Below, piece after piece: positions 1 to 393 of a DNA stretch of 64,000 bases. A program made the translations under genes and the position numbers. The notes beneath the pieces are model-generated. The model had not been told where the DNA came from, made no database searches, and was given only the letters and a program-made list of their open reading frames with translations. Positions within the stretch are counted from its first letter, which is position 1; every line of letters starts with the position of its first letter. This DNA comes from Candidatus Hodarchaeota archaeon (GTDB lineage Archaea > Asgardarchaeota > Lokiarchaeia > Sigyniarchaeales > SOKP01): contig JBHLJY010000011.1 in NCBI GenBank assembly GCA_048887225.1, forward strand, positions 1-64,000, read 5' to 3'.

Positions 1-393
1 GCCTGGGTCGCTGTCTCAGTACCCATCTTGGGGCTCCCGCTCTCACGGCCCCTATCGATTATCGGCTTGGTGAGCCGCTACCTCACCAACAACCATAATC
101 GACCACGATCCTATCCTATGGCAAATAAGAACCATTTTTCTTATCCCTTTCATTGAAAAACTTTTCCAAGCCTATTCAATTATGAAATATTATCCTCAGT
201 TTCGGGGTATCATAGTCTTGCAATATCAATTATTTAAATCGCTATGATACATTCCCGAGGTTATTTTTCTCCATAGGGTAAGTTGATCATGTGTTACTAA
301 GCAGTTTGCTATGGGAATTTTAGGTATCCCATTCAACTCGCATGGCTTATTCTCACCCAAATAGCAGTCGGGTCCGGCAGGATCAACCGGAAT
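1..393 (-). rRNA. rrs: 16S rRNA, 5' portion (runs off window start); contains a 51-nt intron at 201-251
   Basis: Minus strand begins ATTCCGGTTGATCCTGCCGGA (archaeal 16S 5' consensus) and continues through conserved blocks (AAGCCATGCGAG, AGTAACAC, GGTACTGAGACA). Confidence 0.97.
201..251 (-). other. Short hairpin intron in 16S helix 8 with relaxed BHB splice motif
   Basis: RNA CCU-CGGG-AA^U-GUAUCAUAG...CUAUGAUAC-CCCG-AA^A-CUGAGG; removal restores canonical CCUCGGGAAACUGAGG. Confidence 0.85.

Follow-up and report, generated by a model that had tools for sequence, protein, structure and literature searches.

Non-canonical tRNA introns with relaxed HBh' motifs were reportedly described by Marck and Grosjean in 2003. 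Relaxed HBh' introns of tRNAs are cleaved by EndA enzymes of the (alpha-beta)2 or epsilon2 type that carry a specificity loop, and Asgard archaea have an (alpha-beta)2 EndA whose L1 loop is linked to broad specificity (Kaneta et al., 2018, PMC5829648). In ribosomal RNA, short (<50 nt) hairpin BHB introns are known from 13 loci in 16S genes of Thermoproteales and Desulfurococcales, ranging from nt 374 to nt 1391 (Jay and Inskeep, 2015, PMC4496867). That the tRNA-splicing machinery also has substrates other than tRNA is demonstrated by the BHB intron in the cbf5 pre-mRNA of Crenarchaeota (Yokobori et al., 2009, PMC2738675).

In this study, we analyzed an insert at the tip of helix 8 (h8) in the 16S rRNA gene of an archaeon represented by a 49-contig, 98%-complete MAG (G000). 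The window, by which we mean the whole stretch of DNA that was analyzed, comprises 64,000 nucleotides (G000:C11:1-64000). Positions 1-321 of the archaeal SSU rRNA model match window positions 393..1 on the minus strand (Rfam RF01959, 252 bits, E 1.2e-70), and this alignment leaves 52 nt unaligned at the insert site, where the model has 1 nt. The insert itself measures 51 nt. We consider it to be a relaxed HBh' BHB mini-intron without homing endonuclease that would be spliced by EndA and RtcB, a reading to which, going by the sequence comparisons described here, we assign a probability of roughly 0.8. The features of the locus are as follows, with arrows in this and later descriptions marking predicted cuts:

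1..393, minus strand: 5' part of the 16S rRNA gene (Rfam RF01959), ending at the contig start
255-260, minus strand: 5' strand of helix 8, CCUCGG in the minus-strand reading
254..257, minus strand: exon strand CGGG of the central 4-bp helix (helix H), pairing with CCCG at 203-206
251..253, minus strand: 5' three-nucleotide bulge AAU with a predicted cut after AA (AA↓N in 11/11 inserts)
201..251, minus strand: 51-nt insert, predicted BHB-type mini-intron, with cuts between 252 and 251 and between 201 and 200; excision restores the GAAA tetraloop
242..250, minus strand: 5' arm GUAUCAUAG of the inner helix (h'), forming a perfect 9 bp with 207-215
216..241, minus strand: intron hairpin loop, 26 nt, AT-rich, holding all three differences within the insert from the second genome of the genus (G002)
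207..215, minus strand: 3' arm CUAUGAUAC of the inner helix h', pairing with 242-250
203..206, minus strand: intron strand CCCG of helix H, directly abutting h'
200..202, minus strand: 3' AAA with a predicted cut after AA (AA↓A in 11/11 inserts)
194..199, minus strand: 3' strand of mature helix 8, CUGAGG, paired with 255-260 both by minimum-free-energy folding and by the Rfam consensus

The insert resembles the 'HP' introns of Jay and Inskeep in that it is an ORF-less hairpin in 16S with a BHB-type base and a patchy occurrence, presumably cut by EndA and joined by RtcB. It differs from them in its site, as it follows E. coli nt 161 and none of the 13 published loci lies near nt 160, in its host, a mesophile-type, AT-rich Asgard archaeon (Thorarchaeota), and in a motif that is relaxed on the 3' side; in addition, the gene being truncated, no homing-endonuclease intron is visible beside it. 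With the relaxed HBh' tRNA introns (Kaneta et al., 2018, PMC5829648) it shares the 4-bp helix, the 3-nt bulge, the flanking hairpin and the looser second site, and the enzyme of G000 is of the matching type. In contrast to the tRNA introns, its substrate is rRNA, and the exon side of its central helix is drawn from the upper end of a helix present in mature rRNA. The cbf5 intron resides in a protein-coding gene in a different phylum, whereas the h8 insert resides in a structural RNA; the direct analogue of the cbf5 intron is a mini-intron in the rtcB gene of G000, which has the same design as the h8 insert. Our literature search found no published report of rRNA introns at the h8 site or in Thorarchaeota or Odinarchaeota. 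The element is thus of a known type, while its site (the h8 tip) and its host lineage (Thorarchaeota) are new as far as published reports could be found. A first-pass annotation of the sequence had placed known archaeal 16S introns at more 3' sites and had suspected an unreported site, which is indeed absent from the published 16S intron loci (374 to 1391; PMC4496867).

Deletion of 251..201 gives CCUCGGGAAACUGAGG (CCUCGG-GAAA-CUGAGG), which is the exact sequence of insert-free relatives. Because GAA is repeated at both ends of the insert, its boundary is ambiguous, with four equivalent registers. In E. coli rrsH, the GAAA tetraloop of h8 corresponds to nt 159-162, and the insert follows nt 161. 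The 51 nt contain no ORF and no homing endonuclease, only the hairpin and its AT-rich loop. All tested parts of the first-pass annotation stand up to these results. It had placed a 51-nt insert in the h8 loop, in agreement with both the Rfam alignment and the insert-free relatives; its statements on the perfect 9-bp stem, the CGGG/CCCG pairing and the AAU and AAA segments are all correct when the minus strand is read; and cutting after the second nucleotide of each segment, as it had proposed, rebuilds an exon that matches the insert-free relatives to the letter. Its estimate of about E. coli position 160 fits the homologous GAAA at nt 159-162, its expectation that a homing endonuclease is lacking agrees with the lack of an ORF in the insert, and its assignment of the host to the Asgard archaea is confirmed by a near-identical 16S locus in a Candidatus Thorarchaeota MAG. 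It had also described the outer helix as imperfect and the BHB as relaxed, and there are in fact mismatches (U.C and C.U) on the 3' side.

These mismatches make the outer helix beside the 3' AAA non-canonical. A canonical hBHBh' motif has two 3-nt bulges on opposite strands, with a 4-bp helix between them and a further helix on either flank. The insert has a 4-bp H, a 3-nt 5' bulge and a 9-bp h', and its 3' side is without an adjoining helix. When the lower h8 stem is formed, the 3' splice site comes to lie in a 6-nt bulge, AAACUG. Because the 3' site sits in this larger bulge without a canonical outer helix, we classify the motif as a relaxed HBh' and not as a strict BHB. The elements of the relaxed motif are all found: a 4-bp H, a single 3-nt bulge, a helix flanking it, and a second predicted cut that falls two nucleotides 3' of the other H strand. 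This frame is identical in 11 distinct inserts.

In the minimum-free-energy fold, the full h8 stem is kept and CCCG is unpaired; the BHB conformer costs 1.1-1.6 kcal/mol relative to the conformer with the h8 stem intact. This fold, in which h8 is retained and the insert is a hairpin extension of it, and the missing canonical outer helix both speak for an alternative, according to which the insert is a retained expansion segment, forming in the mature 16S a bent continuation of helix 8 that is made up of the lower stem, an asymmetric internal loop, GGG/CCC, the AAU bulge and the 9-bp hairpin. We regard this alternative as unlikely. The site is an invariant GNRA tetraloop and not a variable region, and no SSU expansion segments were found in Lokiarchaeota (Penev et al., PMC7594248). 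Further arguments against it come from the distribution of the insert, from the comparison of inserts at the same site and from other genes of the same genome.

The 16S locus is 99% identical over 400 nt to that of the MAG Candidatus Thorarchaeota archaeon QM1B.325, and the relatives are Asgard genomes. Among 400 genomes of the phylum, about 80 family relatives that have the region show an uninterrupted loop, with the exception of three genomes (G000, G002 and G018). An alignment of 14 relatives shows the insert in two genomes of genus g1, G000 and G002, but not in G006 of the same genus, nor in ten other genera; at the same place, G018 of another genus has an unrelated insert of 35 nt. Presence and absence therefore vary among close relatives both within genus g1 and within the family. 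An alignment of this kind had been suggested by the first-pass annotation as a check, and the insert turned out to be patchy, with an intact loop in G006 and in the roughly 80 family relatives. G000 and G002 differ at 2/342 exon positions and at 3/51 insert positions, all three of them in the loop. An expansion segment would be expected to lie in a variable region and to occur clade-wide; instead, the loop is invariant in insert-free relatives, and the insert is sporadic in genus and family, with its presence varying within one genus between genes with nearly identical exons.

Further carriers were sought with a pattern that constrains exon bases only. Among the 400 genomes, this pattern found 7 carriers: the three Thor genomes and 4/4 genomes of a small-genome Asgard family (f27). 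The f27 inserts are 35-47 nt long, have UGGG/CCCA as exon-intron helix and are present in 4/4 species, as opposed to the sporadic occurrence in Thor; the 16S genes of the four f27 species contain no insert beyond the h8 one. This constancy in f27, together with the lack of any other 16S insert there, would suit a lineage-specific expansion and is a further point in favor of the expansion segment. A scan of metagenome contigs, again with exon bases only, yielded four further distinct 16S inserts. The carrier L032 belongs to another Asgard class and is 97% identical to genome G045 over the 522 nt covered by G045's contig; G045 itself gave no match in the exon-base pattern scan of the 400 genomes. 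The carrier L037 has at most 77% identity to any sampled Asgard genome, and the carrier L034 gave no match. Pattern matches in an Omnitrophota MAG and in the metagenome contigs L029/L036, L033/38/42/44, L035 and L040 were discarded as non-rRNA DNA on reading.

There are, then, 11 distinct inserts, which stem from Thor genomes, 4/4 f27 genomes, one further Asgard lineage and two unplaced lineages (L034 and L037). They are 28 to 51 nt long and share one frame, (C/U)GGG-AA↓N-[hairpin]-CCC(G/A)-AA↓A, followed by exon CUG. The hairpin sequences are unrelated across the 11 inserts and paired nevertheless, with free loop length and loop sequence. In all inserts, the hairpin begins exactly three nucleotides after the exon GGG and ends directly against the intron CCC(G/A). 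With a 3-nt 5' bulge and no 3' gap, 70/88 positions are paired, as opposed to at most 37 off register. In an anchored alignment (A2) of the whole structure, 84.5% of cells are paired, compared with 72.8% in shuffles (0/500 reach the observed value), and sliding the partner reduces the paired fraction to 31-52%. Across the inserts, each of the nine inner-helix pairs varies on both of its sides. Helix H is 100% paired in the 11 distinct inserts and changes from C-G to U-A (UGGG/CCCA) in the four f27 genomes, a covariation that represents a single evolutionary event. The intron strand keeps CCC without exception, and its fourth base follows the exon (G where the exon has C, A where it has U), while the rest of the intron is free. 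This combination of an invariant CCC, a covarying fourth base and two AA dinucleotides is exactly the pattern that a splicing motif predicts. Under the expansion segment, the 3-nt and 0-nt spacing, the invariant AA at each end and the covarying fourth pair of H are all left without a reason.

The motif as such is a different matter. A strict motif scan with a stem of at least 9 bp on both strands of the window gave 109 matches, compared with 62-93 in shuffles, and we rejected the bare motif as stand-alone evidence, as it is common by chance in AT-rich DNA. Because the motif alone is not rare in such DNA, we place the weight on the fixed register and on the comparative data. The register of the insert was set independently, by alignment to insert-free genes, and the chance of finding the motif at a fixed start and end, estimated from the strict motif scan, is roughly 1e-5.

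The enzymes that splicing would require are encoded in G000. There are two PF01974 (EndA) genes, at G000:C1:186656-187261 and C3:60977-61582. The product of one has the B chain of the Aeropyrum pernix heterotetramer as best match (3P1Z_B, E 5e-35), retains the catalytic Tyr, His and Lys, aligns without gaps through the Crenarchaea-specific loop and has a Lys at A. pernix K44; we refer to it as the catalytic subunit. The product of the other has a Ser at the position of the catalytic His, as expected of a histidine-less EndA that would serve as the structural beta subunit. RtcB is encoded as well. G000 thus has both an EndA of a type able to cut relaxed motifs and the RtcB ligase, with the link between loop and specificity taken from the literature (PMC5829648).

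The same splicing rule (a 4-bp helix, a cut after two nucleotides, a hairpin, the 4-bp partner and again a cut after two nucleotides) accounts for interruptions in other genes of this genome, two of which are located as follows:

4158..4262, plus strand: tRNA-Glu(CUC), Rfam tRNA 53.7 bits, with a 30-nt D-loop intron at 4182-4211
G000:C13:33313-34649, outside the window: rtcB, with a 29-nt insert at L122 about 1472-1500

When the rule was applied to three interrupted tRNA genes of G000 (Glu-CUC, His-GUG and Arg-UCG), the resulting tRNAs were accepted by ARAGORN. The tRNA-Glu(CUC) intron has H GGUC/GAUC and cuts AA↓U and AU↓G in relaxed geometry, and its removal gives a valid tRNA-Glu; in the unspliced gene, ARAGORN found nothing. 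As read from the sequence, the tRNA-Glu and tRNA-Arg introns are without a canonical outer helix, like the h8 insert. The 29-nt insert in rtcB splits the conserved motif ISPGGVGY↓DINCG, causing a frameshift and a stop, and is intolerable in the mRNA. It has H UUGG/CCAA, a cut AU↓A, an 8-bp hairpin and a cut AA↓A, and its excision restores VGYDIN. Three genomes (G000, G002 and G021) carry the insert, and G-U wobble substitutions in the hairpin leave it paired; rtcB of nine relatives lacks the insert, SPGGVGYDINCG being read straight through. That the predicted h8 intron has the same design as these inserts of the same genome, which must be spliced, supports the proposed splicing in 16S as well, and it is also an argument against the expansion segment, since the rtcB and tRNA inserts cannot be retained.

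Two observations on the tRNA set of G000 belong here. The spacer tRNA-Ala(UGC) between 16S and 23S, on contig C26 immediately after the 16S 3' end (L080, minus strand), has a 29-nt intron at about position 31/32 with H CUUG/CAAG, and this gene was reported neither by the Rfam tRNA search nor by ARAGORN. Moreover, the genome, although 98% complete, has only 27 tRNA matches, of which a third are over-long and several measure 100-184 nt. Such a low and over-long set would fit many more interrupted genes, with non-canonical and multiple introns.

Together, these comparisons suggest a model for the removal of the h8 insert. In the pre-rRNA, the 4-bp central helix would arise from pairing between CCCG, at the 3' end of the intron, and CGGG in the exon; its formation would cost helix 8 its two uppermost pairs. 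The 9-bp intron hairpin would stack on the central helix and leave the 3-nt bulge AAU. Cleavage by the (alpha-beta)2 EndA would follow at AA↓U and AA↓A, each site lying two nucleotides beyond the 3' end of a central-helix strand. With the exons then joined by RtcB to CCUCGG-GAAA-CUGAGG, helix 8 could re-form with its GNRA loop. The 51-nt intron would be released, probably as a circle. We infer both cleavage and ligation at the h8 site from the sequences compared above.

As the 16S gene of G000 is fragmentary, an error of assembly or binning, a contig end of chimeric origin or a defunct copy of the rRNA gene also has to be considered. The gene has been assembled only as its 5' 393 nt, which end at the start of the contig, and its last 75 nt, found at the end of contig C26, with the middle portion missing. 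No 23S was found in the MAG, and whole-genome Rfam searches of G000 gave no match for SSU or LSU rRNA, missing even the 5' 16S fragment. Such an artefact is nevertheless highly improbable. The same insert, with three substitutions, is present in G002, an independent MAG of the same genus, and an unrelated metagenome contig contains a 49-nt relative. The exons on either side have normal 16S scores, and the fragment runs on into tens of kilobases of coding sequence in the window. Because the insert is found in this second, independent MAG (99% identical overall) and because it is single copy in the G000 genome, we do not take it for an assembly artefact. The leader of the 16S gene (window 394-560, minus strand) and its trailer (L080) form a long processing stem, AAGUUUAAU..CCC with GGG..AUUAAACUU. 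A BHB within this pre-16S processing stem was considered and dropped, since leader and trailer pair well but offered no convincing placement for it.

A MITE-like mobile DNA element of small size, bounded by terminal inverted repeats and a duplicated GAA target, could explain the 9-bp inverted repeats near both ends of the insert and the GAA repeated at its borders, but is scarcely credible given its one genomic copy, the unrelated arm sequences in same-site inserts of other lineages and the CCCG, which target duplication leaves unexplained; a self-splicing intron is no more credible, as Rfam finds no group I or group II match in the window (a gathering-level scan reports SSU rRNA and tRNAs only) and 51 nt are too short. 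The catalytic core of a group I or group II intron is far larger than that.

If the h8 insert is a relaxed HBh' mini-intron, as we think, it may not stand alone. Tentatively, and with low confidence, we suggest that it (S161) belongs to a uniform population of mini-introns that lack endonucleases and are spread genome-wide over tRNA, rRNA and protein-coding genes, rtcB among them, and that the site is a hotspot and not a single inherited relic, with introns gained without a homing endonuclease. In that case, the introns would recur at the same rRNA site in at least three Asgard lineages and two unplaced lineages, and gain could have occurred, for example, by reverse splicing through EndA and RtcB, followed by reverse transcription or recombination.

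Splicing of the insert would extend enzyme-spliced rRNA introns to the tip of helix 8 and to Thorarchaeota. It would also mean that the Asgard tRNA-splicing machinery matures rRNA and, with the rtcB intron, mRNA as well, by one relaxed motif. Asgard archaea are the closest prokaryotic relatives of eukaryotes. With the mini-intron in rtcB, the mRNA of the ligase would depend on the ligase for its own splicing. On the practical side, inserts of this kind lengthen and disturb 16S alignments and interfere with primer design and rRNA gene callers. Unrelated inserts that recur at one site and share a covarying exon-intron helix also make a clean system for studying the gain and upkeep of ORF-less archaeal introns.

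The 16S genes with an h8 insert also have inserts elsewhere that fit the BHB cut rule, including at sites in the 790 loop. L041 (Ga0190334_1000001, 600-1870), from a Thorarchaeon of the G018 type, has a 166-nt insert directly before GUGCCAGC, at E. coli about 514/515 next to the 530 loop, with a fully canonical BHB (h GGCA/UGCC, H AGGC/GCCU, bulges UG↓A and AA↓G), in addition to an 808-nt predicted intron in the 790 loop and a 35-nt h8 insert. In L037, a predicted intron of 81 nt lies within a few nucleotides of the 790 loop, on its 3' side; the H of this intron is CCCG/CGGG, and its bulges are GU↓A and AA↓A. L032 has a 664-nt predicted intron at about nt 1205. In L034 (781-8000; Ga0190307_1000493), the 16S gene is spread over about 6.5 kb, with at least 8 large inserts between short exons and a 28-nt h8 insert besides, an extreme rRNA intron load.
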